A stretch of DNA of 64,000 nucleotides from Alphaproteobacteria bacterium (GCA_050249355.1 JBFWQQ010000001.1:12274-76273); one strand, 5' to 3'. Numbered from the stretch's first letter, positions 2,647-59,938 are shown. Notes: generated from the letters alone by a model not told the origin. Numbers and translations: made by a program.

Positions 2647-3321
2647 ATGAAATTGTTATTGATAGAAGACGATATGGAAGCCGCGCAATACCTGATCAAG
2701 GGATTGCGCGAACAGGGATATGTGGTGGATCATTGCGATTCAGGAAAGGATGGGCTTTTCCGCGCCGCATCCGAAACGTACGACGTCCTGGTCATCGACC
2801 GCATGGTACCCGAGGTGGATGGACTGACCATACTGCAGACATTGCGCGCATCCGGCAACCAGACGCCAGCGCTGATACTCACCGCACTCGATAAGGTGGA
2901 CGAGCGTGTAAAGGGCCTGAAAGCCGGGGCCGATGATTATCTGGCCAAGCCTTATTCGTTCACCGAACTTACCGCCCGGCTGGAAGCCATCACGCGCCGC
3001 AAATCGAGCGAAAAGGCCACGACCATGCTCCATTGCGGCGATCTGGTGATGAACCTGCTGGATCGTACGGTCACCCGGGGCGGCCAGGCGATCGACCTGC
3101 AGGCACGCGAGTTCTCGCTGCTGGAATACCTTATGCGCAATGCCGGTACTGTGGTCACACGCACCATGCTGCTGGAACATGTATGGGATTATAACTTTGA
3201 CCCGCAGACCAATGTGATCGATGTACACATCTCGCGCCTGCGCCAGAAAATAGATAAAGGCTTCGACAAGAACATGATCCTGACGCTACGCGGCACAGGC
3301 TACAAGCTGGTATGTGATTAA
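2647..3321 (+). CDS. OmpR/PhoB-family two-component response regulator
   Basis: 224 aa; receiver domain (LLIEDD, DVLVIDRMVPEVDG, AKPY) plus winged-helix output (TRTMLLEHVWDYNFDPQTNVIDVHISRLRQKID, LRGTGYKL). Confidence 0.9.
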   Translation: MKLLLIEDDMEAAQYLIKGLREQGYVVDHCDSGKDGLFRAASETYDVLVIDRMVPEVDGLTILQTLRASGNQTPALILTALDKVDERVKGLKAGADDYLAKPYSFTELTARLEAITRRKSSEKATTMLHCGDLVMNLLDRTVTRGGQAIDLQAREFSLLEYLMRNAGTVVTRTMLLEHVWDYNFDPQTNVIDVHISRLRQKIDKGFDKNMILTLRGTGYKLVCD

Positions 3322-5549: not shown

Positions 5550-6560
5550 CTACATCACTACGCCCAGCAGCAACAGTAATAGCAAATGCTGAACCGCAAA
5601 CAGGTATTGTGCCGTTCGGATATGCTCCGGCAGCAGTTTTACCGTTCCACTGCCCAGCCATGCCTTTGCGGTATATGCCGAAGGCGGGCCACCCAGCGTG
5701 ACCTGCAGCACAGTAGCGATACATGCAACTTGCAGGGCCTGCGGCAATATGCTCGGCATGGCTTGTGCGTTCTTTGTGCCATGGTCGGTTTTTGACATGT
5801 ATTGCCAGATGGACGCTGCGGTCTGCTTCATTTTCCCTCGTGACTGGAACAGCGCCGCAACAATCCACATGCACGCCACCATGCGCGAAGGAATCCAGTG
5901 CATCACCAGATATACGCCTTGCGCGGGTTTCCCAAAGGCGCTGCCGGATATGGCGAATGTCTCATACATCAGCGTCACCAGCAGGCAGAAAAAAAGACCG
6001 GGCAGGCCACCCAGCAGATACCACATAACCGGGGCAAATATTTTTTCGGCGAACTGCACCGCCTGGTATTCCACAGCCGCGCGCGCCACCCCATGCGCAT
6101 CCAGCCGCGCGTGATGCCGCCATACGGTGCCCTCCAGCGCCTGCTGTGCCAGCTGCAGTTTCTGATCGATAAGCGCCGTACGTATGGTGCTGGCAACATC
6201 CCAGGTGGGACGCACCGGAATCAGCAGAAACAGCAGCACAACATCCAGAAAACGCCCAGTGGCTGTCGATATAGCTGTAACTATGATCCCCACCACAACC
6301 GAAAGGATGAATATGGCCGCCACCACCACCAGACCGCGCATCTGCCGTTCGCCGTCGCTGCGGTGTTCCCGGTTGAGCTTACGCTCCATGGTGCGCAGTG
6401 GCCGGGCAGGCCAGTGCAGAAGCGGTGATATGCCCAGACGGTCAACCAGCGCTTTTGGCCCGGCCAGCAGTGCATTCATCACTAATGCGATAACGACAAT
6501 AACGGCATGTTCCACGACAGCAATCCAATATAATTTATGGCAGCATAGGTTTTTTTGCAT
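5550..6560 (-). CDS. cobD: CobD/CbiB-family membrane protein (adenosylcobinamide-phosphate synthase-like)
   Basis: 336 aa polytopic membrane protein; segments ARAAVEYQAVQFAEKIFAPVMWYLLGGLPGLFF and N-terminal HWPARPL..MERKLN resemble CobD/CbiB conserved blocks but are divergent. Confidence 0.6.
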   Translation of the reverse strand: MQKNLCCHKLYWIAVVEHAVIVVIALVMNALLAGPKALVDRLGISPLLHWPARPLRTMERKLNREHRSDGERQMRGLVVVAAIFILSVVVGIIVTAISTATGRFLDVVLLFLLIPVRPTWDVASTIRTALIDQKLQLAQQALEGTVWRHHARLDAHGVARAAVEYQAVQFAEKIFAPVMWYLLGGLPGLFFCLLVTLMYETFAISGSAFGKPAQGVYLVMHWIPSRMVACMWIVAALFQSRGKMKQTAASIWQYMSKTDHGTKNAQAMPSILPQALQVACIATVLQVTLGGPPSAYTAKAWLGSGTVKLLPEHIRTAQYLFAVQHLLLLLLLGVVM

Positions 6561-16478: not shown

Positions 16479-16785
16479 GGCGGCAAATGTGCCAGAAAAT
16501 CAGACGGCGTTAAAGTACCTAATTATCGGCGAGGCAGGGATTTTCTTTTTCAATGGTATCGGGCATACGGTCGGGGTTGGTTAGGCCGCGAACATATTAA
16601 ATTCCGAATCCGTATGCGGATAAATCTTAACGCCTTCTTATAGAAGAAAAAACCACCGCTTCAAATCTCTCGTTTTATCACTATTATTAGATTTAAATTT
16701 AATTGATAAAATGATTAACTAACTTCCTATTTTAGAAGAGTAAAACATAATAATACTATTTCAAAATTAAGGCATAGCACCACAT

Positions 16786-17571
16786 ATGACCCACGATCAG
16801 CCTAAAGTATTTGATATTAGCTTACCGAGGCATGGCACCGTATCCATGCAAAATGCTCTGCATCAGCTTGGCTTTAATACTGCGCACCTTGGACATATCA
16901 TAGGGAGCCATATAGGCTCTTCTGGGCACAGCGACCCTGCACGACTTAAACAGATGTATGAACAAATTAAGCAAGGTGACTACAAGTTAGATATACTAAA
17001 TGAGTGTGATGGCCTCGGTGACTATCCTATTTGTGCGCCTCAGGTTTTTAAAGAAATCGCAAAACAATACCCTGATGCTAAATTTATCCACGTAAAGCGG
17101 CGTGATGTTTCAAAATGGCTACAATCTGTCGAAGTACAATTTGTCGGATCACAGTTTGCCAACTTTTTTAAAGGCACGCAAAGCGACGAAGAGTTTACTG
17201 CGCTCATGCAAAATTTTCGCGAAATGACTTTTGGTCAAAAGGAATTTGATCCTACCGCATATACCCAAGCGATGCATAGGCATTATGACCAAGTAAAAGA
17301 AGTATTTGCCGATCAGCCAGATAGGCTATTAGAGTTTGATGATATTAGTGAATTTAATGCCGAAGGATTTTCCCGATTGGCGAAGTTTTTAGGAAAACCC
17401 GACCCACAAAGAGAATTTCCACTAAATAACACTCACAGTAGCAACCCACAAAAAGCCTTTATTCGGGCTGTTGAGCAGGGCTTATACACCCCTAAAAGTG
17501 CCATCGACATAGATGAACTGAAAAAGATGGTTGCAAAACAAGATGCAAAAGCTGCCGCAGCTGGCGTATAA
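16786..17571 (+). CDS. sulfotransferase-family protein (Sulfotransfer_4-like)
   Basis: 261 aa; N-terminal PAPS-loop-like LPRHGTVSMQNALHQLGF and DYP..PQVFKEIAKQYPDAKFIHVKRRDVSKWLQSV match my memory of the Sulfotransfer_4 pattern; sampled lines 42-47% GC. Confidence 0.6.
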   Translation: MTHDQPKVFDISLPRHGTVSMQNALHQLGFNTAHLGHIIGSHIGSSGHSDPARLKQMYEQIKQGDYKLDILNECDGLGDYPICAPQVFKEIAKQYPDAKFIHVKRRDVSKWLQSVEVQFVGSQFANFFKGTQSDEEFTALMQNFREMTFGQKEFDPTAYTQAMHRHYDQVKEVFADQPDRLLEFDDISEFNAEGFSRLAKFLGKPDPQREFPLNNTHSSNPQKAFIRAVEQGLYTPKSAIDIDELKKMVAKQDAKAAAAGV

Positions 17572-17598: not shown

Positions 17599-20490
17599 TT
17601 AGCTAGCTTTCGCTTTCTTGCCGCTGGCCGCTTTCGATAGTGTCAGTGCTTCTTCCACCAGCGCTTTTTGCTCTCTCTCGAATATGCTGTAATAACCTGC
17701 GGCAGGCGAGGCGGCTTCCGGCCGGCCGACATATCTCAGCCGTTCGTTGCGACCCAGCTTCTGCATAACCTCCTCGATACGGAACGCCACAAAGCTCCAT
17801 GCACCGTTATTACGCGTTTCTTCCTGACACCACACGATCTCGGCATTGGGGTACATCTTCATATCAACCTCAAGTGATGCGGCCGGGAAGGGGTAATACT
17901 GCTCCATACGGATAATGGCGATATCGTCGATGCCTTTTTCCTCGCGCGCTTCCACCAGATCATAATAGAGTTTTCCGGTGGTAATTATCAGGCGCTTCAC
18001 CTTGTCGCCTGCCACCAGTTTCTTGTCCTCGGAAATGATCCGCTTGAAGGTGGAGGATGGCCCCATATCCTTCAGGCTGGATACACACAGCTTATGACGC
18101 AGCAACGATTTTGGGGTCATCACGATCAGCGGCTTACGGAATTTTCGGTGCAGCTGGCGGCGCAGTGCATGAAAATAGTTCGCCGGTGTGGTTGGGGTAA
18201 CAACCTGCAGGTTGTTTTCCGCGCATAGCTGCAAATAGCGCTCGAGCCGCGCCGAGCTATGCTCCGGCCCCTGACCTTCCTGCCCATGCGGCAGCAGCAT
18301 GACAAGGCCTGACATGCGCAACCATTTATTTTCGGCACTGGAAATGAACTGGTCGATGATGACCTGCGCACCGTTAGCGAAGTCGCCGAATTGCGCCTCC
18401 CATAGCGTCAAATGGTTCGGGCGACCGGTGGAATAGCCATACTCGAAACCTAATATAGCAAACTCGGAAAGTGAGCTGTCGATCACTTCGTATTCGGCTT
18501 GTTCACCGCCCAGATTGTTCAGCGGCAAATAGCGCTCTTCGGTATCTTGGTCGACCAGCACCGAATGGCGCTGCGAGAATGTGCCGCGCCCCGAATCCTG
18601 ACCGGACAGGCGCACACCGAATCCTTCTTTAAGCAGCGAGCCAAACGCAAGCGCTTCGGCGGTAGCCCAATCGATATCTTTGCCACTTTCCATCATGCTG
18701 GCCTTTGCATCCAGCTGGCGGGCGACCTTGCGGTTGAGGTTGAAGTTATCCGGCTTTCTCGCCAACCCCATGCCCACCTGCTTCAGTGTTTTTTCATCCA
18801 CACCGGTGACGGCTTTTTCAGGATCGTCCCTGCCTTTTTCCATGCCTGACCACACGCCTTCCAGCCAGTCGGCCTTGTTGGGCTTGAAGTTCTTGGCCAG
18901 CTCGTACTGCTTGTCGAAGAATTGTTTGAACTCCTCGAATTTTGCATCGGCCTCTTCCTGGGTGATCACGCCTTCACGCACCAGACGCGCCGAATAAAGT
19001 TCCGCCGGCAGCGGTTTCTCCGCAATGCGCTTGTACATGATCGGCTGTGTGAACATCGGCTCGTCGGCCTCGTTATGACCGTATTTGCGGTAGCAGAAAA
19101 TATCCACCACCACATCGCGCTTGAACTCCTGGCGGAACTCTGCTGCCAGTTTGCACACATATACTACCGCGTCCGGATCGTCACCGTTCACATGGAATAT
19201 CGGCGCCTGTACGGATTTTGCCACATCGGTCGGGTAGGGGGTGAAGCGCGAATATTTCGGGCTGGTGGTAAAACCGATCTGGTTATTCACCACAATATGG
19301 ATGGTGCCGCCAGTGCGGTAGCCGCGAAGCTCCGAAAGCGCCAGCACTTCCGGCACCACACCTTGTCCGGCAAATGCTGCGTCCCCGTGCAGGGTGATGC
19401 CCATGGCTGAGCCTTTGTCTTCCTTGTCGCCCATGATGTCGAGCTTGGCGCGCACTTTACCGGCCACTACCGGGTTCACCGCCTCAAGGTGCGACGGGTT
19501 GGCGAGCAGCGACATATGCACCTTGCCATACGGCGTTTCACGGTCGATCGAGCAACCGAGATGGTATTTCACGTCGCCCGACGAGCTGACCCATTCCGGG
19601 AAATCGAGGTTGCCGTGGAAAATGGAAAGCAGCTCGGCATAAGGCTTGCCCATGACCGTGGTGAGCACGTTCATGCGGCCACGATGCGGCATGCCGAGTA
19701 CGATCTCTTTTACGCCCAACTTGCTGGCGGTGTGGATGATGGCCTCAAGGCCCGGCAGCATGACATCACCGCCCTGAATGGAAAAGCGCTTGGTGCTGGT
19801 GTATTTTCGCTGCAGGAACTGCTCGAACGATTCCACTTCCACCAGCGTGCTCCACGCCGCTTTTTTATCCTCTGTGCTTAGCGATACGTTGCCGCGATCC
19901 TGCTCGAAACGTTTTTGTATCCACGATTTCTGGTCGGGGTGCTGGATATGCATGAACTCCACCCCGATATTGCCGCAGTAGGTCTGCTTCAGGATGGCAA
20001 TGATCTCGCGCAGGGTGGCGCGCTGGATGCCCAGACTGCCATCGAGGAATATTTCCTTATCCATGTCCCCATCAGAAAAGCCGTAGGTGCGGTAATCCAG
20101 TTCAGGGTGGTAATCATTCACTTCGATGCCCAGCGGGTCGAGGTTAGCGATCAAATGGCCGCGCACGCGAAATGCGCGCACCATCATGATGGCGCGGATA
20201 GAGTCGTGCGCCAGTTGCTCAATCTCCTCGCGGTTAACCGGGCCTTTTGCTGCCTTGGTGTCCGGTTTGTTTTCCACCGGCTCTTTCACACCGATCACCT
20301 TGCTGGTGATCTGTGTCCAGCTGGCTTCGCGCTGTGCTTTACCTGCCGATCCGTTGGTTACATCACGAAAATAGCTGCGCCAGCTCTCATCCACATGGCC
20401 GGGATTCTCGAGATAGCGTTCGTATAATTCTTCAATGAATGGAGCGTTGGCGGCGAAAAACGGCGAGGATTGGTCAAATTCTTGTGACAT
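17599..20490 (-). CDS. sucA: 2-oxoglutarate dehydrogenase E1 component
   Basis: 963 aa; full-length SucA pattern (FFAANAPFIEELYERYL, GMPHRGRLNVL-like MPHRGRMNVL, HGDAAFAGQGVV, LLPHGQEGQGPEHSSARLERYLQL). Confidence 0.95.
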   Translation of the reverse strand: MSQEFDQSSPFFAANAPFIEELYERYLENPGHVDESWRSYFRDVTNGSAGKAQREASWTQITSKVIGVKEPVENKPDTKAAKGPVNREEIEQLAHDSIRAIMMVRAFRVRGHLIANLDPLGIEVNDYHPELDYRTYGFSDGDMDKEIFLDGSLGIQRATLREIIAILKQTYCGNIGVEFMHIQHPDQKSWIQKRFEQDRGNVSLSTEDKKAAWSTLVEVESFEQFLQRKYTSTKRFSIQGGDVMLPGLEAIIHTASKLGVKEIVLGMPHRGRMNVLTTVMGKPYAELLSIFHGNLDFPEWVSSSGDVKYHLGCSIDRETPYGKVHMSLLANPSHLEAVNPVVAGKVRAKLDIMGDKEDKGSAMGITLHGDAAFAGQGVVPEVLALSELRGYRTGGTIHIVVNNQIGFTTSPKYSRFTPYPTDVAKSVQAPIFHVNGDDPDAVVYVCKLAAEFRQEFKRDVVVDIFCYRKYGHNEADEPMFTQPIMYKRIAEKPLPAELYSARLVREGVITQEEADAKFEEFKQFFDKQYELAKNFKPNKADWLEGVWSGMEKGRDDPEKAVTGVDEKTLKQVGMGLARKPDNFNLNRKVARQLDAKASMMESGKDIDWATAEALAFGSLLKEGFGVRLSGQDSGRGTFSQRHSVLVDQDTEERYLPLNNLGGEQAEYEVIDSSLSEFAILGFEYGYSTGRPNHLTLWEAQFGDFANGAQVIIDQFISSAENKWLRMSGLVMLLPHGQEGQGPEHSSARLERYLQLCAENNLQVVTPTTPANYFHALRRQLHRKFRKPLIVMTPKSLLRHKLCVSSLKDMGPSSTFKRIISEDKKLVAGDKVKRLIITTGKLYYDLVEAREEKGIDDIAIIRMEQYYPFPAASLEVDMKMYPNAEIVWCQEETRNNGAWSFVAFRIEEVMQKLGRNERLRYVGRPEAASPAAGYYSIFEREQKALVEEALTLSKAASGKKAKAS

Positions 20491-20639
20491 AGCGGTATTT
20501 TAACCTAAATCAGGCATCAAAGGTTGCAAGGGCCGCAGATTATAGCAAGCACGACTGCGGCGTCCAATACTTTATACACAGAAGATTAAGGGAGATTTAA
20601 GAGGGAGAGGTGTTTATAAGCCCTGCCCACATGTGTAGG

Positions 20640-21524
20640 CTATGCCGCTTTTTTCTTCAGTAACTCCACCAGAGTTTCGCCCAGCAGAGCAGGAGAATCG
20701 GACACCATGATGCCGGCGGATTTCATCGCCTCGATCTTGTCTTCGGCACCGCCCGTGCCACCTGATACGATAGCCCCTGCATGACCCATGCGGCGGCCCG
20801 GAGGCGCTGTACGGCCCGCGATAAAGCCCACGACCGGCTTTTTGGCTTTACTGGATTTTAAGAATGCGGCAGCTTCTTCTTCCGCGCTGCCGCCGATCTC
20901 ACCTATCATCACGATAGCATCGGTTTCAGGATCAGCGAGGAACAGTTCCAGCACGTCGATAAAGTTGGTGCCGTTTACAGGATCACCGCCGATGCCCACA
21001 CAGGTGGACTGGCCAAAACCAACAGCGGAGGTTTGGGCTACCGCTTCATAGGTGAGGGTGCCGGAGCGCGACACGATACCGATCTTGCCTTTTTTATGGA
21101 TATGGCCGGGCATAATGCCAATTTTACATTCTTCCGGCGTGATGACGCCGGGGCAGTTCGGGCCGACGAGACGGGTCTTGCTGCCGGAAAGCGCGCGTTT
21201 TACATTTACCATGTCCAGCACCGGAATACCTTCGGTGATGCAGATGACCAGTTCCATTTTGGCATCGATCGCTTCCATTATGGCGTCGGCTGCAAATTTT
21301 GGTGGAACATATATCACCGAAGCATTGGCCTTGGTGATATGCTTGGCTTCGGCCACCGTGTCGAACACTGGCAGGTCGATATGCGCTGTACCGCCCTTGC
21401 CGGGAGTCACGCCGCCCACCATTTTAGTTCCGTAGGCAATCGCCTGCTCGGAGTGATAGGTGCCTTCACGGCCCGTGATACCCTGACAGATAACTTTGGT
21501 GTTTTTGTTGATCAATATCGACAT
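20640..21524 (-). CDS. sucD: succinyl-CoA synthetase subunit alpha
   Basis: 294 aa; [27 protein letters not shown], catalytic His loop RMGHAGAI; AGGAG Shine-Dalgarno 7 nt upstream lies inside the preceding ORF. Confidence 0.95.
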
Positions 21525-21527
21525 AAT

Positions 21528-22058
21528 TTATCTCCTATGCTCGCTGTCAAGAACAGCCTGTTGCAGTTTGGTATGCTCGGGTTTGGTCAGAACGATCTCG
21601 TGGGTTGATTTGGGGCTTGCAATAGCCGCCCGCAATGCTGCGGCTTTGGATTTATCTGGTAGCCTGCTTAGCAAGCTGAACATTGGCCATGCTGTGGCCA
21701 ATGTCGCATCATCTTTTTGTAATAGCCTGGCCCTTTCATCGCCTACTGCATACACGGCACTTCCAGTATCGGATACTGTTCCCCTGAACTCCTGCTGCAG
21801 ATCAGCAGACAAAATAAGATCCATGTGCCGTAGCGCCGCTCTACTTAGGGTTTTTACATACTTATCACCCTCCGGAGCAAACCCCCGCAGTGCATCGCGC
21901 TCGCGTTGTAACAGAAGAGCTTCTCCCATACCGCTGGTGTATGCAAGGGGATCATCTGCGTCTCTACGAAACCGCGAGCTTAAACCATGGCGGCGTGCCG
22001 AGCGGGCTTTTGCTTCCCGCTCGTCCGGCGTCATATCCTGTCGTCTTTTATCTGCCAT
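21528..22058 (-). CDS. hypothetical protein inserted between sucC and sucD
   Basis: 176-aa ORF filling the 540-bp sucC-sucD gap (starts 6 nt after sucC TGA, stops 3 nt before sucD ATG); basic N-terminus (KRRQDMTPDEREAKARSARRH); no motif recognised. Confidence 0.55.
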   Translation of the reverse strand: MADKRRQDMTPDEREAKARSARRHGLSSRFRRDADDPLAYTSGMGEALLLQRERDALRGFAPEGDKYVKTLSRAALRHMDLILSADLQQEFRGTVSDTGSAVYAVGDERARLLQKDDATLATAWPMFSLLSRLPDKSKAAALRAAIASPKSTHEIVLTKPEHTKLQQAVLDSEHRR

Positions 22059-22064
22059 TTAAAT

Positions 22065-23237
22065 TCAGGCCGCTTCATTTTCTACTGCGCCGACAATTTT
22101 TTCTGCCGCATCGCCGAGGTCATCGGCGGCGGTGATAGCCAGACCGGAAGATGCCAGCATCTTCTTGCCCAACTCCACGTTGGTACCCTCCAGGCGTACC
22201 ACCAGCGGAATATTCAGGTTCACCTCGCGCGCGGCGGTGATGATACCTTCTGCGATAATGTCGCAGCGCATGATGCCACCGAAAATATTCACCAGAATGC
22301 CTTCCACATTCTCATCCGAGAGGATAAGCTTGAACGCTTCGGTCACTTTTTCGCGGTTCGCGCCGCCGCCTACGTCAAGGAAATTGGCTGGCGATCCGCC
22401 CTTGAGTTTAATGATGTCCATGGTTGCCATGGCAAGGCCGGCGCCGTTTACCATACAGCCGATGCTACCGTCCATCTTGATGTAGGACAGGCCGAAACCG
22501 GCGGCTTTCTGTTCCAGCGGGTCTTCTTCGTCCGGGTCACGCAGCTCGCCGATATCGGGGTGGCGGAACAATGCATTTTCATCGAAGTTGAATTTAGCAT
22601 CCAGCGCCACCAAGTGACTATCCTCGGTGATCACCAGCGGGTTGATCTCCAGCTGCGATGCATCGGTTTCATTGAACGCCTGCCACAGACCCTGAATGAA
22701 TTTGGCAAACTCGCCATGCATGGTTTTGGGGATCTGCAGGCCGAACGCCAGCTTGCGTATATGGAAATCCTGTAGGCCGGTGGCCGGATCCACGCTTTGC
22801 TTGATGATCTTTTCGGGTTCTTTTTCCGCCACCTCTTCGATCTCCACGCCGCCTTCGCGAGACGCCACGAATGTCACGCGCGAGGTCGCACGGTCTACCA
22901 ACATGCTGAGGTAAAGCTCTTTGTCGATCGACGTGCCTTCTTCAACATAAATGCGCTTTACCAGCTTGCCTTCCGGCCCGGTCTGGTGGGTCACCAGCGT
23001 CATGCCCAGCATGTTTTTGGCCAGCGTTTCCACTTCATCGAGCGACTTTGCCAGCTTCACACCGCCGCCTTTGCCACGGCCGCCAGCATGGATCTGCGCT
23101 TTTACCACCCATAATTTTCCGCCCAGCCCTTGTGCCGCTTGCACCGCCTCTTGCGGTTTGTAGGCCACCTGGCCGCGTGGCACGGCCACACCATATTTCG
23201 CTAAAATCTGTTTGGCTTGGTACTCATGTATATTCAT
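22065..23237 (-). CDS. sucC: succinyl-CoA synthetase subunit beta
   Basis: 390 aa; [15 protein letters not shown]-grasp, [25 protein letters not shown]. Confidence 0.95.
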
Positions 23238-23256
23238 GAATTTCTCCTATGTTTTC

Positions 23257-24234
<978 letters not shown>

Positions 24235-24310
24235 TCATGGGAATGAACCGCTAGCGTCCTTTTAGGCGCTGCGAAAAGGTTTTGCAACCGCAGAGTTGAC
24301 CCGTGCCACC

Positions 24311-25573
24311 TTAGGCTTTGTTCATCTTGTCGAAGAACTCGGAATTGCTCTTGGTCTCACCCAATTTTTCCAGCAGGAATTCGATGCCGTCCATCGGCCC
24401 CATCGGTGCAAGAATCTTGCGCATCACCCACATTTTGGTGAGGGTGGCTTTATCCACCAACAGGTCTTCCTTGCGGGTGCCGGACTTGGTGATATCCATC
24501 GCCGGGAAGGTACGTTTATCGGCCAGCTTGCGATCAAGCACGATCTCGGAGTTGCCGGTGCCCTTGAACTCTTCGAAGATCACCTCGTCCATGCGGCTGC
24601 CGGTTTCGATCAGCGCGGTGGCGATGATGGTGAGCGAACCGCCATGTTCGATGTTACGCGCCGCACCGAAGAAACGTTTCGGGCGTTGCAATGCGTTCGC
24701 GTCGACACCACCGGTCAGCACTTTACCGGACGACGGTACAACCGTGTTGTAGGCGCGGGCGAGGCGGGTAATGGAGTCGAGCAGGATCACTACATCTTTT
24801 TTATGCTCCACCAGTTTCTTGGCCTTTTCTATCACCATTTCGGCCAGCGCCACGTGGCGGGTTGCCGGTTCGTCGAAGGTAGACGATACCACTTCGCCTT
24901 TAACCGTGCGCTGCATGTCGGTCACCTCTTCGGGGCGCTCATCGATCAGCAGTACGATCAGGAATGCATCGGGATGGTTGGCGGTGATGGAGTGCGCAAT
25001 ATTCTGCAAATATACCGTTTTACCGGTGCGGGGCGGCGCCACGACCAGCGCGCGCTGGCCAAAGCCCAGCGGCACCACGATGTCGGCCACACGCATGGAC
25101 ATATCTTTTTTGTCCGGGCGGTTTTCGATCTCGAGCTTGATACGACGTTCAGGATAGAGAGGGGTCAGGTTGTCGAAATTGATGCGATGACGCACTTGTT
25201 CGGGCGCATCGAAGTTGATGGTGTTGACCTTGATCAGGGCAAAATAACGCTCGCCGTCTTTGGGCGCACGAATTTCGCCATCCACTGTGTCGCCGGTGCG
25301 CAAACCGAAGCGGCGGATCTGGGCCGGGGCCACATAAATATCGTCGGGGCCCGGCAGGTAGTTAGCCTGTGGCGAGCGCAGGAAGCCAAAACCATCCTGT
25401 AGCACCTCGATCACGCCGTCGCCAGTAATTGGTTCTCCGTTCTCCGCCTGCTTCTTCAGGATGGCAAATATCATTTCCTGCTTGAGCAGGGTGCTGGCGT
25501 TTTCTACCCCGGCGTCTTCGGCCAGTTGCAGCAATTCATCGGCTGATTTCAGCTTAAGTTCTTGGATTTTCAT
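24311..25573 (-). CDS. rho: transcription termination factor Rho
   Basis: 420 aa; N-terminal RNA-binding (GFGFLR), Walker [20 protein letters not shown]-terminal LEKL..T.SN.EF. Confidence 0.95.
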
Positions 25574-25714: not shown

Positions 25715-26056
25715 TTACCGGGGGCTCTCGTCCAATGCCGCACGCATTATTTCGCCAGCATCGAATGCCAGATCTGGCCTTTTGTGCTTTATTTCCTGCA
25801 GGATTTCCGGCGGGGGGGCCGCACCTTCGCCCGATGCGAGTATCTCACGGGCATACGCACAAAGATCATAACCGCCTCGCGCCTGCGCCGCAAGAAATGC
25901 CGGATAATCCACCGGCGACAGGGTGGCGTAAGCCCAATGGTCCGCCCCCTGTATTTTGCCCTGCACCAGTATCAGTATGCTGGTATGCTGGGCCAGTTCA
26001 TCTGCCAATTCCGACATCACCTGGTCTAATATGGTCTGTTCTACCTGATGCTGCAT
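25715..26056 (-). CDS. hypothetical protein
   Basis: 113-aa ORF 3 nt downstream of the 259-aa ORF on the same strand; acidic, no TM; no motif recognised. Confidence 0.45.
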   Translation of the reverse strand: MQHQVEQTILDQVMSELADELAQHTSILILVQGKIQGADHWAYATLSPVDYPAFLAAQARGGYDLCAYAREILASGEGAAPPPEILQEIKHKRPDLAFDAGEIMRAALDESPR

Positions 26057-26059
26057 ATG

Positions 26060-26839
26060 CTACTTACTCTGCCCGAACGATTCGGGGCGCTGGCGCAGCG
26101 CCTTGGCGCGCGGTTTGAAATTCTCGTCACGCATTTCGCGCAGTATGAAATTCGATGTTCCAAGACAGATGCCCGAGAGAGCGCGTGCCATATCCTTGTT
26201 TGACAACCCATCAAACAATACCAGCAGCGCACTGAGCTGCAACATGTCCGATGCTAGTTTTTTCGGATTGGCCGCATAATCATGCTTTACCTTATCCGCA
26301 TGCTTTCCCCTTTCGCGGGTGGCATACCCTTCCGTTTTATGGCTGGTGGGGCTGTTGTCAAACACCAGAGGGCCGGCTCTTTCCAATCGTTCCGGCATAA
26401 CTGCGCCATAACCCGTCCATGCCAGAGTCCACAGCCCCGCCATCGTTTCAGTCGTACGTTTTTTCATGACGCCAGATGCTACCAAGCATGCCGCTGATGC
26501 CGCAAGTATCCCATAATAGGTGCGCCCTACATAAGCGGGGCGCAGACGGTCAACAAAGCCTGCTTTCGCGTCATTCGCCGCTTTGCCCGATTCCGCTTCC
26601 CCGAAAGTGGCCAAAAACGCCGCCCCTAGCACACCAAGTCCCCCGGTAGCCGCCCGCAGGGGGCTTGGTTTTGTGCCCACTCCCATGCCGGAAACAATCA
26701 CCAGACCGTGCGATAACATGCGTATCGTGCCTGCCACCCGATACTGGTTGGCCTGCCACCATTCATTTTTTGCTGTAACCGCAACCGGTTGTGCCTCCGA
26801 TGCATCAAAAAGAAGCGGGGTGTATCTATCCCTAGACAT
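26060..26839 (-). CDS. hypothetical integral membrane protein
   Basis: 259-aa ORF with about 4 Gly/Ala-rich hydrophobic helices (GLVIVSGMGVG, GGLGVLGAAFLATFG, YYGILAASAACLVASGV, MAGLWTLAWTGYGAV) and a basic C-terminal tail; no family recognised. Confidence 0.5.
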   Translation of the reverse strand: MSRDRYTPLLFDASEAQPVAVTAKNEWWQANQYRVAGTIRMLSHGLVIVSGMGVGTKPSPLRAATGGLGVLGAAFLATFGEAESGKAANDAKAGFVDRLRPAYVGRTYYGILAASAACLVASGVMKKRTTETMAGLWTLAWTGYGAVMPERLERAGPLVFDNSPTSHKTEGYATRERGKHADKVKHDYAANPKKLASDMLQLSALLVLFDGLSNKDMARALSGICLGTSNFILREMRDENFKPRAKALRQRPESFGQSK

Positions 26840-27324: not shown

Positions 27325-28355
27325 GCGGCAATTTTTTCCTGCTCCAGGTACTCACACTGGCCATGTTCCCGGCAATATCCGCAATGTTCTTTTTTACGGG
27401 TTTCCTTTTTGGTGCAAAGTTCCGCCAACGCCTGGATATAATACGGATCGGTGCCCAGCGCCGGTACGCGCCAGTAATTCGGCACCCCATGCTCTTGGGC
27501 CAGTTCGCGGTATTCCACATCCAGTTCCACCAGTGTCTCCGAATGCTCCGATACGAACGCCACTGGCACTACAAGCACCGATACGCCTTCTTTTCCGGCT
27601 TTCTCTATCTCTTCTTCCGTGGAAGGACCGATCCATTTTTTCGGCCCTACTTTGCTCTGGTAACAGATGCGGTGATCTATGCCGTCTATCGACAACACCT
27701 GCACGATCAATTCCACCGTTTTTTCCACTTGCTGCTGGTAAGGATCGCCCTGTCTTATAATGCTTTCGGGCAGGCCGTGTGCAGAAAACAACACGCGTGG
27801 CTTGCTTTCTTCTGCTGCGCGCCAGTAGGTGTCCTTGATGTTGTTCACATGCGCCGCAATAAAACCGAAATCGTCATAGTAGCAGCATATTTTGGAAGTC
27901 GGCACGTCCAGTCCACATTTTCGCGCTGCCCTTTCCCAGTCGCGTATAGACGACTCGGTAGTGGTAGTTGAATATTGCGGATAGAGCGGCAGCAGGATCA
28001 CTTCGTCCGGGCTATATGCTTTCACATTCCTGACTACACTATCGCTGCGCGGATCCCAGTAGCGCATGCATACGAATGTTTTATATTCGTCTTCTTCGGC
28101 GGCCAGTTGCTTTTCCAGTGCCGTTGCCTGTGCTATGGTCTGATCGAGTATAGGGGACTTTCCCCCCATTTGCTGGTAAATCCCTTTGGCTTTGCGTGTG
28201 CGCAAAGTGGTTATCAGCATCGCCAGCAGCCACCGCAATGGCTGGGCCAACCGTATGATCGCAGGGTCATTGAACAAATTGAACAGGAACGGGCGAACCG
28301 ATTTCAGATCGTCGGGGCCTCCCAGATTGAATAATATGACTGCTTTTTTGCTCAT
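27321..28355 (-). CDS. hemH: ferrochelatase with C-terminal Cys-rich extension
   Basis: KKAVILFNLGGPD, LLPLYPQYSTTT, FSAHGLPE, VAFVSEHSETL; start at ATG 28355 shares one nt with hemE stop (TAATG); tail HCGYCREHGQCEY. Confidence 0.9.
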   Translation of the reverse strand: MSKKAVILFNLGGPDDLKSVRPFLFNLFNDPAIIRLAQPLRWLLAMLITTLRTRKAKGIYQQMGGKSPILDQTIAQATALEKQLAAEEDEYKTFVCMRYWDPRSDSVVRNVKAYSPDEVILLPLYPQYSTTTTESSIRDWERAARKCGLDVPTSKICCYYDDFGFIAAHVNNIKDTYWRAAEESKPRVLFSAHGLPESIIRQGDPYQQQVEKTVELIVQVLSIDGIDHRICYQSKVGPKKWIGPSTEEEIEKAGKEGVSVLVVPVAFVSEHSETLVELDVEYRELAQEHGVPNYWRVPALGTDPYYIQALAELCTKKETRKKEHCGYCREHGQCEYLEQEKIAA

Positions 28356-29395
28356 TACACTAATCGTATGCCTTTCAGATAGTGGCACAATGCCTGTATA
28401 TTCTCTATCGGTGTGTGTGGCAAAATACCATGTCCAAGATTAAAAACAAAAGGTTTGTCTTTTAAATTTTCCACTATGTCCGCCGCCGTTTGCAGCATGG
28501 CATGCGTGTCCCCTGCAAGCATCTCCGGGTGCAGGCAACCCTGCACTACGATATGCGGTTGTAACTTTTCATGTATCCATTCCAGCGGCACCGAATCGTC
28601 TACACTGATTGCATTAGCTCCGCTTTGCTGTGCGTAGGATAAAAACTTGATTCCCGACTGGCGGGGAAACGCTATCACCGGTAACTGAGGACATTTCTGT
28701 TTTATTTTTTCTATGATGCGCCTGGCCGGTGCGATAGACCATGTAGCATATTCCTGCTCACTCAAAATTCCGGACCAGGAATCAAAAAGCTGGAACACAT
28801 CGGCCCCAGCTTCCGCCTGTTGGATCGCATGGTGTGCAATGGCGTCGATCAGCCGATCAGTCATCTCTGAAAATAATTCCGGCTGCTGCTGCATCATCGC
28901 GCGAACCTTATGGAAAGACCGGCTAGAGCCTCCCTCAATCATGTAACACAATAGTGTCCATGGCGCGCCCGCAAAGCCGATCAACGATTTTTCTTTGGGA
29001 AGTTCTTTTCGCGTCCGTTGTATCGCTTCGTAAACAGGTGCCAATTTTTCCACATCAAATCGCGTATATTTTTTTGCGTCCGTTTTTCCGGTGATCGCAT
29101 CCAGTTTTGGGCCCTCGCCTGTAACGAACGATACGCCTTGCCCGAATGCGTGCGGTATCACCAGTATATCGGAGAATATAATCGCCGCATCCATGTCAAA
29201 GCGACGTACAGGCTGTAACGTTGCTTCGCTAGCTGCCTGTGGCGTATAGCAAAAATGCATGAAGCTTTCATACTTGCTTCTGAGTTCGCGATATTCAGGT
29301 AGCGAACGCCCTGCCTGCCGCATGAACCAGAATGGCGGCCTTTGCTGTTGGGTACCTAATAACGTGCGGTGCAATATCGAATCGGGAGGAATCAT
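28355..29395 (-). CDS. hemE: uroporphyrinogen decarboxylase
   Basis: 346 aa; RPPFWFMRQAGRSLPEYR, DAAIIFSDILV, FAGAPWTL, FNLGHGILP. Confidence 0.95.
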   Translation of the reverse strand: MIPPDSILHRTLLGTQQQRPPFWFMRQAGRSLPEYRELRSKYESFMHFCYTPQAASEATLQPVRRFDMDAAIIFSDILVIPHAFGQGVSFVTGEGPKLDAITGKTDAKKYTRFDVEKLAPVYEAIQRTRKELPKEKSLIGFAGAPWTLLCYMIEGGSSRSFHKVRAMMQQQPELFSEMTDRLIDAIAHHAIQQAEAGADVFQLFDSWSGILSEQEYATWSIAPARRIIEKIKQKCPQLPVIAFPRQSGIKFLSYAQQSGANAISVDDSVPLEWIHEKLQPHIVVQGCLHPEMLAGDTHAMLQTAADIVENLKDKPFVFNLGHGILPHTPIENIQALCHYLKGIRLV

Positions 29396-29731
29396 TAATA
29401 ATAATATTATATATATATTTAAGATAGTAGTAGTAGTTGTATGCAGGCTAAGCGGGGATTAAATTTTATACCTCTATTACTAACAGGAGTTATGATAAAA
29501 ACCAAAGAGGAAAAATACCGGGGAATAAAACTAACTCACGAAAGAAAAATAATAAAATCCCTCAGGGTAAAACGAGGATAAATGGTTATTCTCATTTTTC
29601 ACAGCGGCATGAAATAATAATTCAAATGGGGATAAGCAGGCATAAAGGATAAAAAGAAATATGGATAAAAAGAATACACCGGAATATCAGAAGGATTATA
29701 AGGCATTTATCCCCAATGATGTGAACAGACC
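29396..29731. other. putative chromosomal replication origin (oriC) in the hemE / DUF299-kinase spacer
   Basis: longest, most AT-rich spacer in the window; conserved alphaproteobacterial ori context (hemE | RP001/CC0001 homologue-aroE-coaE-dnaQ); DnaA-box-like cluster; near-pure A/T block 29396-29440; gene-strand switch. Confidence 0.65.
29573..29715. promoter_or_regulatory. cluster of DnaA-box-like motifs
   Basis: GGATAA cores at 29576, 29630, 29647, 29663 (TGGGGATAA 29627-35 and TATGGATAA 29660-68 are 1 mismatch from TGTGGATAA) plus inverted TTATCCCCA 29707-15 (1 mismatch from TTATCCACA). Confidence 0.55.
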
Positions 29732-30556
29732 ATGAAATCATTCATTATTCACCTGGTATCCGATTCGACTGGAGAAACAGTAAGCAGTGTGGCGCGTGCG
29801 GCGCTTGCACAATTCGACGAGATAGAATGTGAAGAATATAACTGGACGCTCGTGCGCAGCAAGCAGCAGATAGACAAGGTCATAGCAGCCATACAAGAAC
29901 ATCCCGGCGTGGTGATGTATACATTAGTGGATGCCGACCTGCACGACCGGTTGAAATCTTCCTGCGCCAAGCTCGGTGTTCCATGTATTCCGGTCCTTTC
30001 GCGTATTGTCAATGAGCTGTCTGCCTACTGGGGGGTAAAAACACACGCGCTTCCCGGAAAACAACACGCGCTGGATCAGGAATATTTTGACCGCGTGGAT
30101 GCCATCAATTATGCGCTGGCGCATGACGACGGACAAGCCCACTGGGAGCTTGAAGAATCAGATATAGTATTGGTGGGCGTTTCACGCACCTCGAAATCGC
30201 CGACCTGCATGTATCTTGCCTATAAGGGATATAAAACCGCCAACGTGCCGTTTGTGCTGGATTGTCCGTTGCCAGAAACGCTGGAGACCCTTACCCGTCC
30301 GCTGGTAGTGGGACTTACGATCAATCCCGAGCGCCTGCAACAGATACGCAAAACACGACTACAGTCATTGAACCAGGAGCAGCATAGCAATTATATCGAC
30401 ATGGAATACATGCAACGGGAAATTGCCGAATCGCGCAAGCTGTTCCAGAAACACCAGTGGCCCGTGATCGATGTGACACGCAGGTCTGTGGAGGAAACAG
30501 CGGCCACCATCATGCAGTTTGAAAAGAAGCATCAGGAAAAAATAAAAGGGAACTGA
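29732..30556 (+). CDS. pyruvate, phosphate dikinase / PEP synthetase regulatory kinase-pyrophosphorylase (DUF299 family)
   Basis: 274 aa; IHLVSDSTGET, P-loop GVSRTSKSPT, YIDMEYMQREI..S; homologue of Rickettsia RP001 / Caulobacter CC0001. Confidence 0.85.
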   Translation: MKSFIIHLVSDSTGETVSSVARAALAQFDEIECEEYNWTLVRSKQQIDKVIAAIQEHPGVVMYTLVDADLHDRLKSSCAKLGVPCIPVLSRIVNELSAYWGVKTHALPGKQHALDQEYFDRVDAINYALAHDDGQAHWELEESDIVLVGVSRTSKSPTCMYLAYKGYKTANVPFVLDCPLPETLETLTRPLVVGLTINPERLQQIRKTRLQSLNQEQHSNYIDMEYMQREIAESRKLFQKHQWPVIDVTRRSVEETAATIMQFEKKHQEKIKGN

Positions 30557-30557
30557 A

Positions 30558-31370
30558 ATGAAGAAACAGGCAGGAATCATAGGCTGGCCGGTTTCGCATA
30601 GCCTGTCTCCTGTGCTGTACAAGTACTGGCTGAAACTGTATAATATAGACGGAGCTTACACGGCAAAAGAAGTAAAACCTGAAAAACTCTCCGGCATTAT
30701 GCAATTCATGCAGGAAAGTAATTTTATAGGATTCAATATTACGGTGCCGCATAAGGAAAAGATCATTCCCCTGCTGGACAGCATAGATACAATTGCCGCC
30801 GCCATCGGCGCTGTAAATACTGTGGTTTACAAGGAAGGCAAATGGCAGGGTACCAATACGGATGTTGCGGGTTTCATAAATTACCTGAAAGTATGTGCCC
30901 CCGACATCCGCACAACCCGGGCCGTGGTGCTGGGAGGGGGGGGAGCGGCGCGCGCCGTGATATATGCGCTGAAACAAATGGGTTTTTCAAATATCACGCT
31001 GTGCAACCGTACAAAGGACAGGGCAACGCAGCTGGCAGAAGAATTTTCTGTGCAGCAGGCCAACTGGGAAAGCCGGGAAAAAATACTGCAGTCAGTAGAC
31101 CTGCTCGTAAATACCACTACCCTGGGCATGGAGCAGAAAGGGCCGCTGGAGATCGACCTGTCGGCATTGCCTCAAGATGCAACAGTGTATGATATTGTAT
31201 ACACGCCACTGAATACCGCATTGTTACAACAGGCCGAGCGGCGTGGAAATAATACGGTCGACGGGCTGGGCATGCTTTTGCACCAGGCAGTTCCGGCGTT
31301 TGAGGCATGGTTTGGTGTGCGGCCTGAAGTTGATGCGGCACTTGGCAGTTATATGAGAGCACAATTATGA
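30558..31370 (+). CDS. aroE: shikimate dehydrogenase
   Basis: 270 aa; IIGWPVSHSLSP, GFNITVPHK, GAVNTV, NTDVAGF, GGGGAARAV. Confidence 0.9.
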   Translation: MKKQAGIIGWPVSHSLSPVLYKYWLKLYNIDGAYTAKEVKPEKLSGIMQFMQESNFIGFNITVPHKEKIIPLLDSIDTIAAAIGAVNTVVYKEGKWQGTNTDVAGFINYLKVCAPDIRTTRAVVLGGGGAARAVIYALKQMGFSNITLCNRTKDRATQLAEEFSVQQANWESREKILQSVDLLVNTTTLGMEQKGPLEIDLSALPQDATVYDIVYTPLNTALLQQAERRGNNTVDGLGMLLHQAVPAFEAWFGVRPEVDAALGSYMRAQL

Positions 31371-47154: not shown

Positions 47155-48121
47155 TATGTTTTGTCATAACAGGGTTTAGCAACGCGTCCAGCATTTCAGG
47201 GGCATCGAATTGCAGGGAAATGGGCACCACCGTCACCAGTGCCTTGAGCCGGTCTGGCAGGCGTGCCGCATCCTTGCTGGTGGTTGCCAGTATGGCGCCA
47301 GACCGTTGCGCATGCTCTGCCAGCTGCTCGATCTCTCGCTCATGGTATGGATAATGGTCGGCAAATATTCGGGTCTCGATGACATTGGCGCCCAGCTGCC
47401 GCAGTGTATCGAGGAACTTCTCGGGTATCGCCAGTCCGCAGAATGCGAGAACGCTCTTGCCTTTCAGCAATTCAGCGTTCTTATCGGGCACCGTTCGCGC
47501 CGTCAGTACGGGCAGCCGTTGGGGCAATGCCAGTGCCAGAGACTGCGGGTTGATGTGGATAATGGCATCAGCGCGGTCATAGGCTTGTTCGGGCCATTCG
47601 CGTAAGGGGCCGGCAGGAATCGGCAGTCCATTACCCAGCCCGGTCTTGCCATCGATTACAAGCAGCGACAGATCCTTATGCAATGACGGGTTTTGAAATC
47701 CGTCATCTGTGATAATCAGTTCAGCGCCGTGTCGTAGGGCAAAGCGGATGCCATCCAGGCGGTTCTTGGCAATAATGGTGGGCAGCACGTTCGCCAGCAG
47801 CAGCGGTTCATCGCCCACCTCTTGTGATGTGTGTCCGGAGGGGCTTACCTGCAACGGCCCCAAAAGCGTGCCTTTGTAGCCACGGCTGACAAACCATGCA
47901 TTGATGCCGCGTGATTTGCATAGCGTTCCGATATGCAGTGCGGTGGGCGTTTTCCCCGCGCCGCCCGCAGTCAGCCCGCCAACGCAGATTACCGGCACAT
48001 CCATGCGTACCGGCGGGGTAAATAAAAAACGCAAGCGAATCATCAGCGGGTAGAACAGACTGAACGGATATAATAGCCATGCAATAGGCCCGCGCGCGGC
48101 CCAGAATTCCGGCGTGTTCAT
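47126..48121 (-). CDS. lpxK: tetraacyldisaccharide 4'-kinase
   Basis: 331 aa; PVICVGGLTAGGAGKTP, VSRGYKG, GDEPLLLA, IITDDGFQN. Confidence 0.9.
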   Translation of the reverse strand: MNTPEFWAARGPIAWLLYPFSLFYPLMIRLRFLFTPPVRMDVPVICVGGLTAGGAGKTPTALHIGTLCKSRGINAWFVSRGYKGTLLGPLQVSPSGHTSQEVGDEPLLLANVLPTIIAKNRLDGIRFALRHGAELIITDDGFQNPSLHKDLSLLVIDGKTGLGNGLPIPAGPLREWPEQAYDRADAIIHINPQSLALALPQRLPVLTARTVPDKNAELLKGKSVLAFCGLAIPEKFLDTLRQLGANVIETRIFADHYPYHEREIEQLAEHAQRSGAILATTSKDAARLPDRLKALVTVVPISLQFDAPEMLDALLNPVMTKHNEKEPAIPD

Positions 48122-59543: not shown

Positions 59544-59629
59544 GGAGGAGTGGCCGAGTGGTCAATGGCAGCAGACTGTAAATCTGCCCGCGTATGCGTT
59601 CGTAGGTTCAAATCCTACCTCCTCCACCA
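59544..59629 (+). tRNA. tRNA-Tyr (anticodon GTA), class II with long variable arm, encoded CCA
   Basis: acceptor GGAGGAG/CTCCTCC, anticodon stem GCAGA/TCTGC with loop CTGTAAA, variable arm CCGCGTATGCG, T arm GTAGG-TTCAAAT-CCTAC, 3' ACCA. Confidence 0.9.
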
Positions 59630-59728
59630 TTTTCCAATGCCGCATACAAAATTATGGCCCGTTTTGGGCTTGATTAATATTCGTTAATCTTTAGGGTGGT
59701 GCAAACACATGTTACACCTCATAATGTC

Positions 59729-59938
59729 ATGGAAAACTCTGCTCTTCGCATATTGAAAGAATACTCAGAAGGCAAGCATTGCTGGCGAAGAGTTGTGCGC
59801 AACCTGAAGCTATGGGATTTTGATGAGCTGAAAACTCTTATGGCACAGCACAACCTGCCCATGCCGACATTGCATGCGGCCAGCGACCAGAAAAATATAG
59901 ATGCCCTCATGAAGCGCATAGCTGGAGAAGGCCCATGA
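59729..59938 (+). CDS. small hypothetical protein, possible HTH/antitoxin-like
   Basis: 69 aa from ATG 59729 (80 aa from GTG 59696); LKEYSEGKHCWRRVVRNLKLWDFDELKTLMAQHNLPMP loosely resembles UPF0175-type small HTH proteins; stop overlaps next start (ATGA). Confidence 0.45.
   Translation: MENSALRILKEYSEGKHCWRRVVRNLKLWDFDELKTLMAQHNLPMPTLHAASDQKNIDALMKRIAGEGP

Follow-up and report, generated by a model that had tools for sequence, protein, structure and literature searches.

A 336-bp spacer (29396-29731) lies between the divergent genes hemE and a DUF299 kinase gene of an uncultured alphaproteobacterium and had been predicted from the sequence alone to be a probable oriC. All positions given here refer to the window, that is, the whole 64-kb stretch of DNA (64,000 nucleotides [nt]) that was analyzed. 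The locus raises the question of whether the spacer represents the chromosomal origin of replication and, if so, at which site the duplex would open. Synteny, a DnaA-box cluster conserved in 18 close relatives, a skew sign change within gene-strand classes, and a putative unwinding module next to hemE all support the original prediction. We estimate at roughly 0.88 the probability that the spacer constitutes the chromosomal oriC, of the hemE-linked type already known, a function that we infer from these features.

Gene context of the spacer

Two divergent genes form the boundaries of the spacer:

28355-29395, minus strand: hemE (uroporphyrinogen decarboxylase), left boundary gene (Pfam URO-D, E = 4.9e-111)
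29732-30556, plus strand: gene of a DUF299/PpsR-like kinase-pyrophosphorylase (COG1806, yqfL), right boundary gene (Pfam PF03618, E = 1.9e-96; NCBIfam NF003742)

The start codon of hemE (ATG, 29395-29393) abuts an A/T tract, and no Shine-Dalgarno motif was visible when the sequence was read. To the right, aroE, coaE, and dnaQ follow on the plus strand, and the left flank carries hemH, a hemJ-like gene, and rho, as assigned by Pfam. The proposed arrangement of divergent hemE and DUF299 genes followed by aroE-coaE-dnaQ thus agrees with Pfam, and gene orientation flips at the spacer. The dnaA gene had been placed outside the window; in line with this, neither dnaA nor parAB or gidAB was found among the window open reading frames (ORFs) scanned with Pfam/NCBIfam or in the Pfam records for the remaining ORFs, which were judged by the records of MAG GCA_050187605.1, whose DUF299 protein is identical to that of the window.

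Relatives of the locus were fetched via an alignment of DUF299 homologues (a single-protein query of genome contigs gave no relatives), and the comparison set comprised 160 related loci from genomes and metagenomes as well as seven closer relatives of 76-87% identity. More than 130 related alphaproteobacterial loci share the gene order rho-hemH-hemE, spacer, DUF299-(maf)-aroE-coaE-dnaQ, and the related spacers are 260-670 bp long, with a GC content always below that of their surroundings. The Caulobacter origin, which was defined experimentally, likewise lies at the hemE/COG1806 (DUF299) boundary, as do other predicted alphaproteobacterial origins (PMC1914354; bioRxiv 10.64898/2026.09.14.751567), and the predicted origins of Rickettsia and Azospirillum have the same boundary genes as the Caulobacter origin.

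Several features of the surrounding DNA were recorded as well. More distant alphaproteobacterial loci contain maf between DUF299 and aroE (Pfam Maf match at 5825-6421 of locus L029); it is absent at 30556-30558 in the window and from the closest relatives, in which DUF299 and aroE lie 1 bp apart. In the closest relative (L164, 87% DUF299 identity), hemE (1623-2465 of the L164 locus) was called at 280 amino acids (aa) and tblastn aligns it to the expected start; a frameshift or an assembly error of that contig could underlie the short call. Between rho and the hemJ-like gene, two adjacent minus-strand ORFs of 113 and 259 aa (25715-26839) gave no NCBIfam match, the 259-aa ORF gave no Pfam match either, and neither has a Pfam family in the MAG record. 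Finally, a tRNA-Tyr gene (59544-59629) is followed by an 863-aa ORF with only a weak AbiEii-like Pfam match, and the GC content of 59544-62526 is lowered to about 0.50; this segment may be an island integrated at tRNA-Tyr.

DnaA boxes and base composition

With an A/T content of 0.69, the spacer is the most A/T-rich 336-bp stretch of the 64 kb (top 0.04% of all such stretches), and its GC content is 0.31 versus 0.54 for the whole window. It contains the following predicted DnaA boxes, with mismatches counted against the Escherichia coli consensus TTATCCACA:

29443-29451, minus strand: weak tandem box GCAGGCTAA on the proximal side, with 4 mismatches, located in the 13-bp spacer 29440-29452
29453-29461, minus strand: anchoring box CGGGGATTA (equal to TAATCCCCG), 3 mismatches; matches the clade consensus cGGGGATTA (block cGGGGATtAA)
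29466-29474, plus strand: degenerate inverted partner TTATACCTC; clade consensus TTATCCAC (block 29464-29473); palindrome 29455-29472
29506-29514, minus strand: degenerate box AGAGGAAAA; relatives have tGTGGATAAA (block about 29508-29517)
29573-29581, minus strand: box CGAGGATAA, 2 mismatches; clade consensus cGtGGATAA; part of the second copy of the box module, 29565-29607
29586-29603, plus strand: two adjoining boxes, TTATTCTCA and TTTTTCACA, 2 mismatches each; clade consensus TTATcCACATnTTTnA (block TTATcCACAT)
29618-29635: abutting opposed pair, TAATTCAAA (plus strand, 3 mismatches) and TGGGGATAA (minus strand, 1 mismatch); clade consensus TTATTCACATGTGGATAA
29644-29652, minus strand: extra weak box AAAGGATAA, with no conserved counterpart in relatives
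29660-29668, minus strand: box TATGGATAA, 1 mismatch; GGATAA at 29663-29668 conserved
29707-29715, plus strand: box TTATCCCCA, 1 mismatch; the most strongly conserved box in the clade (TTATCCACAG, block to 29716), 17 bp before the DUF299 ATG

The GGATAA core occurs on the plus strand at 29576, 29630, 29647, and 29663 and on the minus strand at 29707. The prediction had listed four same-orientation cores, the last three of them spaced by 16-17 bp, and both coordinates and spacings proved correct, the last three plus-strand cores being 17 and 16 bp apart. Similarly, the two 9-mers that it had placed one mismatch away from TTATCCACA and its inverted 9-mer, which likewise has one mismatch, were all recovered, at 29627-29635 (minus strand), 29660-29668 (minus strand), and 29707-29715 (plus strand). 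Five GGATAA/TTATCC cores were observed against a mean of 0.69 in 2000 dinucleotide-preserving shuffles of the spacer, none of which reached five, and three boxes with at most one mismatch were observed against a mean of 0.11, a count that again none of 2000 such shuffles reached. A DnaA-box scan, as had been suggested, singled out the spacer as the only 336-bp segment in the 64 kb with three boxes at one mismatch or less. A perfect TTATCCACA is absent from the spacer and present twice elsewhere in the window, at 47554 and 57056; the boxes of the window are weaker than the clade consensus, none being a perfect TTATCCACA and two being TTATCCCCA.

When 18 close spacers were aligned with MAFFT (mean column identity of 48%), the conserved blocks coincided with the boxes and with a run of triplets (29418-29439) that is described below. 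Four of the five GGATAA cores occupy conserved box positions, and the fifth (29647) is specific to the window. This extra core is explained by a local 16-bp duplication, visible as two identical 12-nt copies of GGATAAAAAGAA in direct orientation, at 29647 and 29663 (16-bp spacing, 29647-29674). The duplication appears recent and local, adding one DnaA-box core to the proposed origin; Tandem Repeats Finder reported nothing, the arrays being too short.

Criteria for hemE-linked origins have been formulated by Brassinga (2001/2002) and Ioannidis (2007). As those criteria ask, the spacer adjoins hemE as well as COG1806, its A/T content exceeds the average, here that of the 64-kb window, and its DnaA-box cluster is unmatched by any other intergenic region within the same 64 kb. 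Two further criteria, a shift of GC skew and the presence of CtrA and IHF sites, are taken up in later sections.

A/T tract and putative DnaA-trio array at the hemE end

The hemE-proximal end of the spacer has a composition of its own:

29396-29422, no strand assigned: pure A/T tract of 27 nt, proposed first-opening site (DUE), holding the most A/T-rich 40-mer of the window
29425-29439, plus strand: putative DnaA-trio array TAG TAG TAG TAG TTG (3'-GAT-5' repeats as written in the literature), column conservation of 0.8-0.9

An exact (TAG)4 occurs once in the whole 64-kb window, at 29425-29436. Behind the A/T tract, the sequence reads GA(TAG)4TTGTAT, and the plus strand is devoid of any C from 29396 to 29442. 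On the hemE-sense strand, the order is 5'-TAATCCCCG-CTTAGCCTGCATA-CAA(CTA)4-TC-TTAAATATATATATAATATTATTATTA-ATG(hemE).

The oriC of Bacillus subtilis and other bacteria contain a basal unwinding system (BUS; Richardson 2016/2019; Pelliciari 2021). A BUS consists of one or two co-oriented DnaA boxes and, across a spacer with a peak at 10-13 bp (modal value, 13), at least three 3'-NAN-5' trios with the consensus 3'-GAT-5' (Pelliciari 2021). The search program of the same study accepts a box with at most 2 mismatches, a spacer of at most 16 bp, and at least three central-A trinucleotides. Its supplement, which served as our standard for the orientation of boxes and trios, gives the B. subtilis entry in the 3'->5' direction as AATAGGTGT-TTAGGTGT-CCGG-GATGATAATGAAGATGAT-AAAAAATAT, which corresponds to a top strand of 5'-TTATCCACA-AATCCACA-GGCC followed by CTA-type trios and an A/T-rich region.

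The window matches this entry in the order, orientation, and spacing of its elements, namely, a box, a weaker co-oriented box, trios, and an A/T tract that lies beyond the trios and is followed directly by a gene start. Four perfect TAG trinucleotides (3'-GAT-5' trios; 29425-29436) are present, and the spacer from the better box measures 13 bp (29440-29452), the most frequent BUS value, if TTG is taken as a trio, or 16 bp, the upper limit, if only TAG is counted. The window differs from the B. subtilis BUS in its boxes, as the anchoring box TAATCCCCG has 3 mismatches to TTATCCACA, exceeding the 2 allowed, and the proximal box is very degenerate. Yet TAATCCCCG fits the clade consensus cGGGGATTA, and the anchoring box of the closest relative, CGGGGATAA, has 2 mismatches. 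Two further differences are that distant alphaproteobacterial relatives vary the middle base of the triplet (T[A/G/T]G) and that the module of the window adjoins hemE rather than lying in the dnaA-dnaN spacer.

The arrangement is conserved among relatives. An A/T-rich block next to the hemE ATG, at the position matching 29396-29422, followed by a period-3 run was found in every close and many distant relatives, always on the same strand. The run is then followed by a short G-rich spacer, which in distant relatives contains a good TGTGGATAA or TGTGAATAA box at the position of the weak box 29443-29451, by cGGGGATTA, and often by the inverted TTATCCAC. For the triplets, the majority consensus is TAG, and single sequences have T[A/G/T]G; base frequencies anchored on the box were blurred by variable spacing. 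Matches to (TAG)4 in at least 10 of 12 positions were present on the plus strand of 36% of 129 nonredundant spacers and on the minus strand of none (0%), compared with 0.4% of other segments taken from these loci and 1.6% of shuffled spacers. The median distance from the array to the hemE ATG was about 54 nt over all 129 spacers and 20-50 nt in the closest relatives, and the interval between the end of the run and GGGGATTA had a sharp peak at 13-14 nt and a minor one at 10 in the related spacers. Moreover, an nhmmer profile derived from 70 other spacers, to which the window did not contribute, matched the window at 29400-29487 (E = 1.2e-11); the rest of the 64 kb gave no comparable match, only a weak second one at 29565-29607 (E = 0.011). 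At this second place, about 120 bp to the right, the box module of 29443-29487 (weak box, GGGGATTAA-type box, inverted box, and TT..ACAG) recurs without trios.

In single-stranded form, the strand that carries the trios has unusually little structure (z = +2.25) and folds worse than all 200 shuffles, which fits a strand kept extended for a protein filament. The A/T block 29396-29440 with its (TAG)4 had originally been taken as a possible unwinding element as a whole. The part formed by the pure A/T tract 29396-29422 beside hemE has held up, but the (TAG)4 run is not simply part of an A/T block: judged by its strand specificity and conserved position, it is predicted to be a DnaA-trio array in fixed register with the anchoring box.

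The position of the run 30-44 nt upstream of a hemE ATG that lacks a Shine-Dalgarno motif, the middle base of distant relatives' triplets, often G or T where A is taken as invariant for DnaA-trios, and the resemblance of the proximal triplet TTGT to the E. coli single-strand DnaA motif would also suit an origin operating without a trio mechanism. (TAG)n would then be a 5' leader or translation signal of hemE (CUACUACUA in the mRNA) or the site of another protein, and opening would proceed by E. coli-like loop-back unwinding. We regard this as unlikely, given that distances to the anchoring box cluster tightly around the published BUS value, that the orientation relative to the box is always of the BUS type, and that (TAG)4 remains the majority consensus of the run.

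The leader of hemE coincides with the proposed unwinding site, because the 27-nt A/T tract reaches the hemE ATG without a recognizable Shine-Dalgarno motif; an A/T tract up to the ATG is likewise present in close relatives. A hemE transcript starting inside the spacer must consequently cross both the trios and the A/T tract, which recalls the hemE promoter located inside the Caulobacter Cori.

GC skew

The cumulative GC skew over all positions falls from the left end of the window and rises to its right end, with a minimum at 29328, 68 bp from the spacer, which is the minimum of these 64 kb, a span too short to show a global one. Since gene orientation also flips at the spacer, third codon positions were split by gene strand. 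Read on the plus strand, the third-position skew was -0.039 for plus-strand and -0.029 for minus-strand genes on the left and +0.076 and +0.080, respectively, on the right (p = 4e-4 for left versus right; p = 0.03 and 0.006 within the orientation classes). The skew shift asked for at a hemE-linked origin is thus present within the 64 kb, the sign of the third-position skew flipping in both gene-strand classes.

The cumulative third-position skew has two near-equal minima, after 17571 (-188) and after hemE (-184), and because of this pair the skew favors an origin in this region of the window without pinpointing its site. The rise between the minima comes from sucA, sucD, sucC, mdh, and rho, minus-strand genes in 17599-25573 whose third-position G-C skew on the plus strand is positive, opposite to that of their neighbors. 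This probably reflects the codon bias of highly expressed genes and blurs skew-based mapping of the origin.

An A/T-rich region by the second minimum (16479-16785) was considered as an alternative origin and rejected; it has a single box-like site, lacks trios, and shows no conserved origin context. Independently of this question, 16479-17571 comprises an A/T-rich divergent intergenic region with the second most A/T-rich 40-mer of the window and an adjoining low-GC gene of the sulfotransferase family, and it may be foreign DNA.

CtrA, IHF, and methylation sites

As had been noted originally, the spacer contains no exact TTAA-N7-TTAA; the whole window contains one, at 20586. CtrA-like sites with one mismatch are not enriched in the window (14 versus 16 expected), and the only one in the spacer (29448-29462), which overlaps the anchoring box, lacks conservation and violates the published mismatch rule. 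The lack of CtrA sites had been read as a hint of different cell-cycle control. This reading lost its basis in the comparison, as the exact site occurs in only 1 of 129 related hemE-DUF299 spacers (2.9 expected by chance), which makes its absence the rule in these lineages. By this comparison, CtrA sites are not a general feature of hemE-type origins. A paucity of CtrA sites in alphaproteobacterial origins has been published already (PMC1914354). The IHF consensus WATCAANNNNTTR has no exact match in the spacer either, so that the CtrA and IHF sites listed among the features of hemE-linked origins are both missing; the source of these criteria itself includes origins without CtrA sites, and such sites are no absolute requirement.

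No ctrA gene was recognized among the three OmpR-family regulators of the window: by NCBIfam, two of them score far below the CtrA cutoff (one OmpR-like and one above the PhoB cutoff), and the third (2647-3321) was assigned by Pfam only. As for methylation sites, the spacer contains neither GANTC nor GATC. In the window, GANTC is depleted two-fold (100 sites versus 196 +/- 13 expected) and GATC occurs at 321 sites; two GAATC sites (29379-29383 and 29389-29393) lie in the first hemE codons, 3-17 bp from the A/T tract. The GANTC pattern may point to a methylation system of the CcrM or HinfI type.

Alternative functions of the spacer

Other functional elements were searched for in the spacer. Rfam yielded no RNA gene at the gathering threshold, and permissive settings gave only a meaningless match (E = 0.71). 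A small protein gene was judged unlikely, with ORFs of at most 46 aa save for a 67-aa frame that starts inside hemE; (TAG)4 amounts to four stop codons in one plus-strand frame. A promoter scan found one plus-strand site and none for hemE and was uninformative.

DnaA doubles as a transcription factor. The spacer could hence be only a divergent promoter region, in which DnaA boxes regulate hemE and/or the DUF299 operon and the origin lies elsewhere, for example by dnaA, which the window does not contain. The single promoter-like site (29589-29618) and the boxes just before the DUF299 ATG (29707-29727) would be in keeping with such a role, but trios, a 13-bp spacer, co-oriented boxes, and an A/T tract make up an unwinding module and are no promoter features. 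Furthermore, the skew changes sign at the spacer, the same spacer is the experimentally defined origin of Caulobacter, and the origins of alphaproteobacteria typically lie away from dnaA (PMC1914354), all of which renders a mere promoter function improbable.

It is very improbable that the spacer serves a secondary replicon or an integrated element as its origin: although the metagenome-assembled contig does not give the replicon type, the flanks carry core housekeeping genes (rho, hemE/H/J, sucABCD, mdh, lpdA, dnaQ, secB, lpxK, kdtA, and purD), the window contains no repABC or other plasmid replication genes, and the same synteny is present in chromosomes of up to 3.1 Mb.

Comparison with known origins

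The reading of the spacer as a chromosomal oriC is strengthened by its likeness to the Caulobacter Cori and the predicted hemE-linked origins of Rickettsia, Wolbachia relatives, and Azospirillum, which have the same hemE and COG1806/DUF299 boundaries, followed by aroE-coaE-dnaQ. Like the spacer, these origins combine a cluster of mostly weak boxes for DnaA with an A/T-rich block, and their A/T content exceeds the genome average. The boxes of the window with a TCCCC core recall the weak boxes of Caulobacter, a likeness that we treat as a lead only. In contrast to the experimentally proven Caulobacter Cori, the origin of the window is a predicted one, its spacer is devoid of exact CtrA, IHF-consensus, and GANTC sites, and maf is missing between DUF299 and aroE. 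With the E. coli oriC, the window shares a TTGT motif on the strand that would be bound as well as DnaA boxes of graded affinity that flank an A/T-rich DUE; it differs in having no 13-mer repeats, no GATC cluster, and a different gene context.

Automated searches have predicted BUS modules in alphaproteobacteria, but their scores are low and some of the predictions fall on other sites (Pelliciari 2021). In the literature that was searched, we found no description of a conserved hemE-proximal module in hemE-type origins, which is no proof of novelty.

Proposed mechanism and implications

By analogy with B. subtilis and other tested BUS systems, the elements of the spacer suggest the following course of initiation. 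DnaA would occupy about ten mostly sub-consensus boxes over 29443-29715, and the co-oriented pair at the hemE end (the weak box 29443-29451 and the anchoring box 29453-29461) would position an ATP-DnaA filament. Extending 13 bp further onto the plus-strand track (TAG)4TTG (29425-29439), the filament would stretch and melt the adjoining 27-bp A/T tract (29396-29422) directly before the hemE start codon. Helicase would then be loaded at the melted tract, and forks would depart in both directions, giving rise to the sign change of GC skew; the spacer would presumably fire as the sole origin. Counting against an oriC at this place are the lack of a perfect TTATCCACA in the spacer, the 3 mismatches of the anchoring box, and the absence of dnaA from the vicinity.

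The analysis reveals no new kind of system; its main addition to the original prediction is the conserved putative trio module in a hemE-linked origin. As an annotation, the origin can help to orient the replicon, to estimate growth rates from read depth, and to analyze strand bias. The comparative result provides a compact, testable hypothesis for the opening site of hemE-type origins, namely, a trio array in register with a cGGGGATTA box.

More tentatively, and with less than even confidence, we propose that hemE-linked origins widely in Alphaproteobacteria share one deeply conserved, strand-specific unwinding module. It may comprise an A/T tract at the hemE start codon, a C-free T[A/G/T]G track, a spacer of about 13 bp, and tandem boxes TGTGGATAA-cGGGGATTA, and it may span this uncultured clade, Rhodospirillales-type lineages, Sneathiellales, and Kiloniellales, with remnants in Erythrobacter. 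If functional, such a module would determine where alphaproteobacterial origins open, would loosen the "central adenine" rule for DnaA-trios, and would physically couple the expression of hemE to the melting of the origin.
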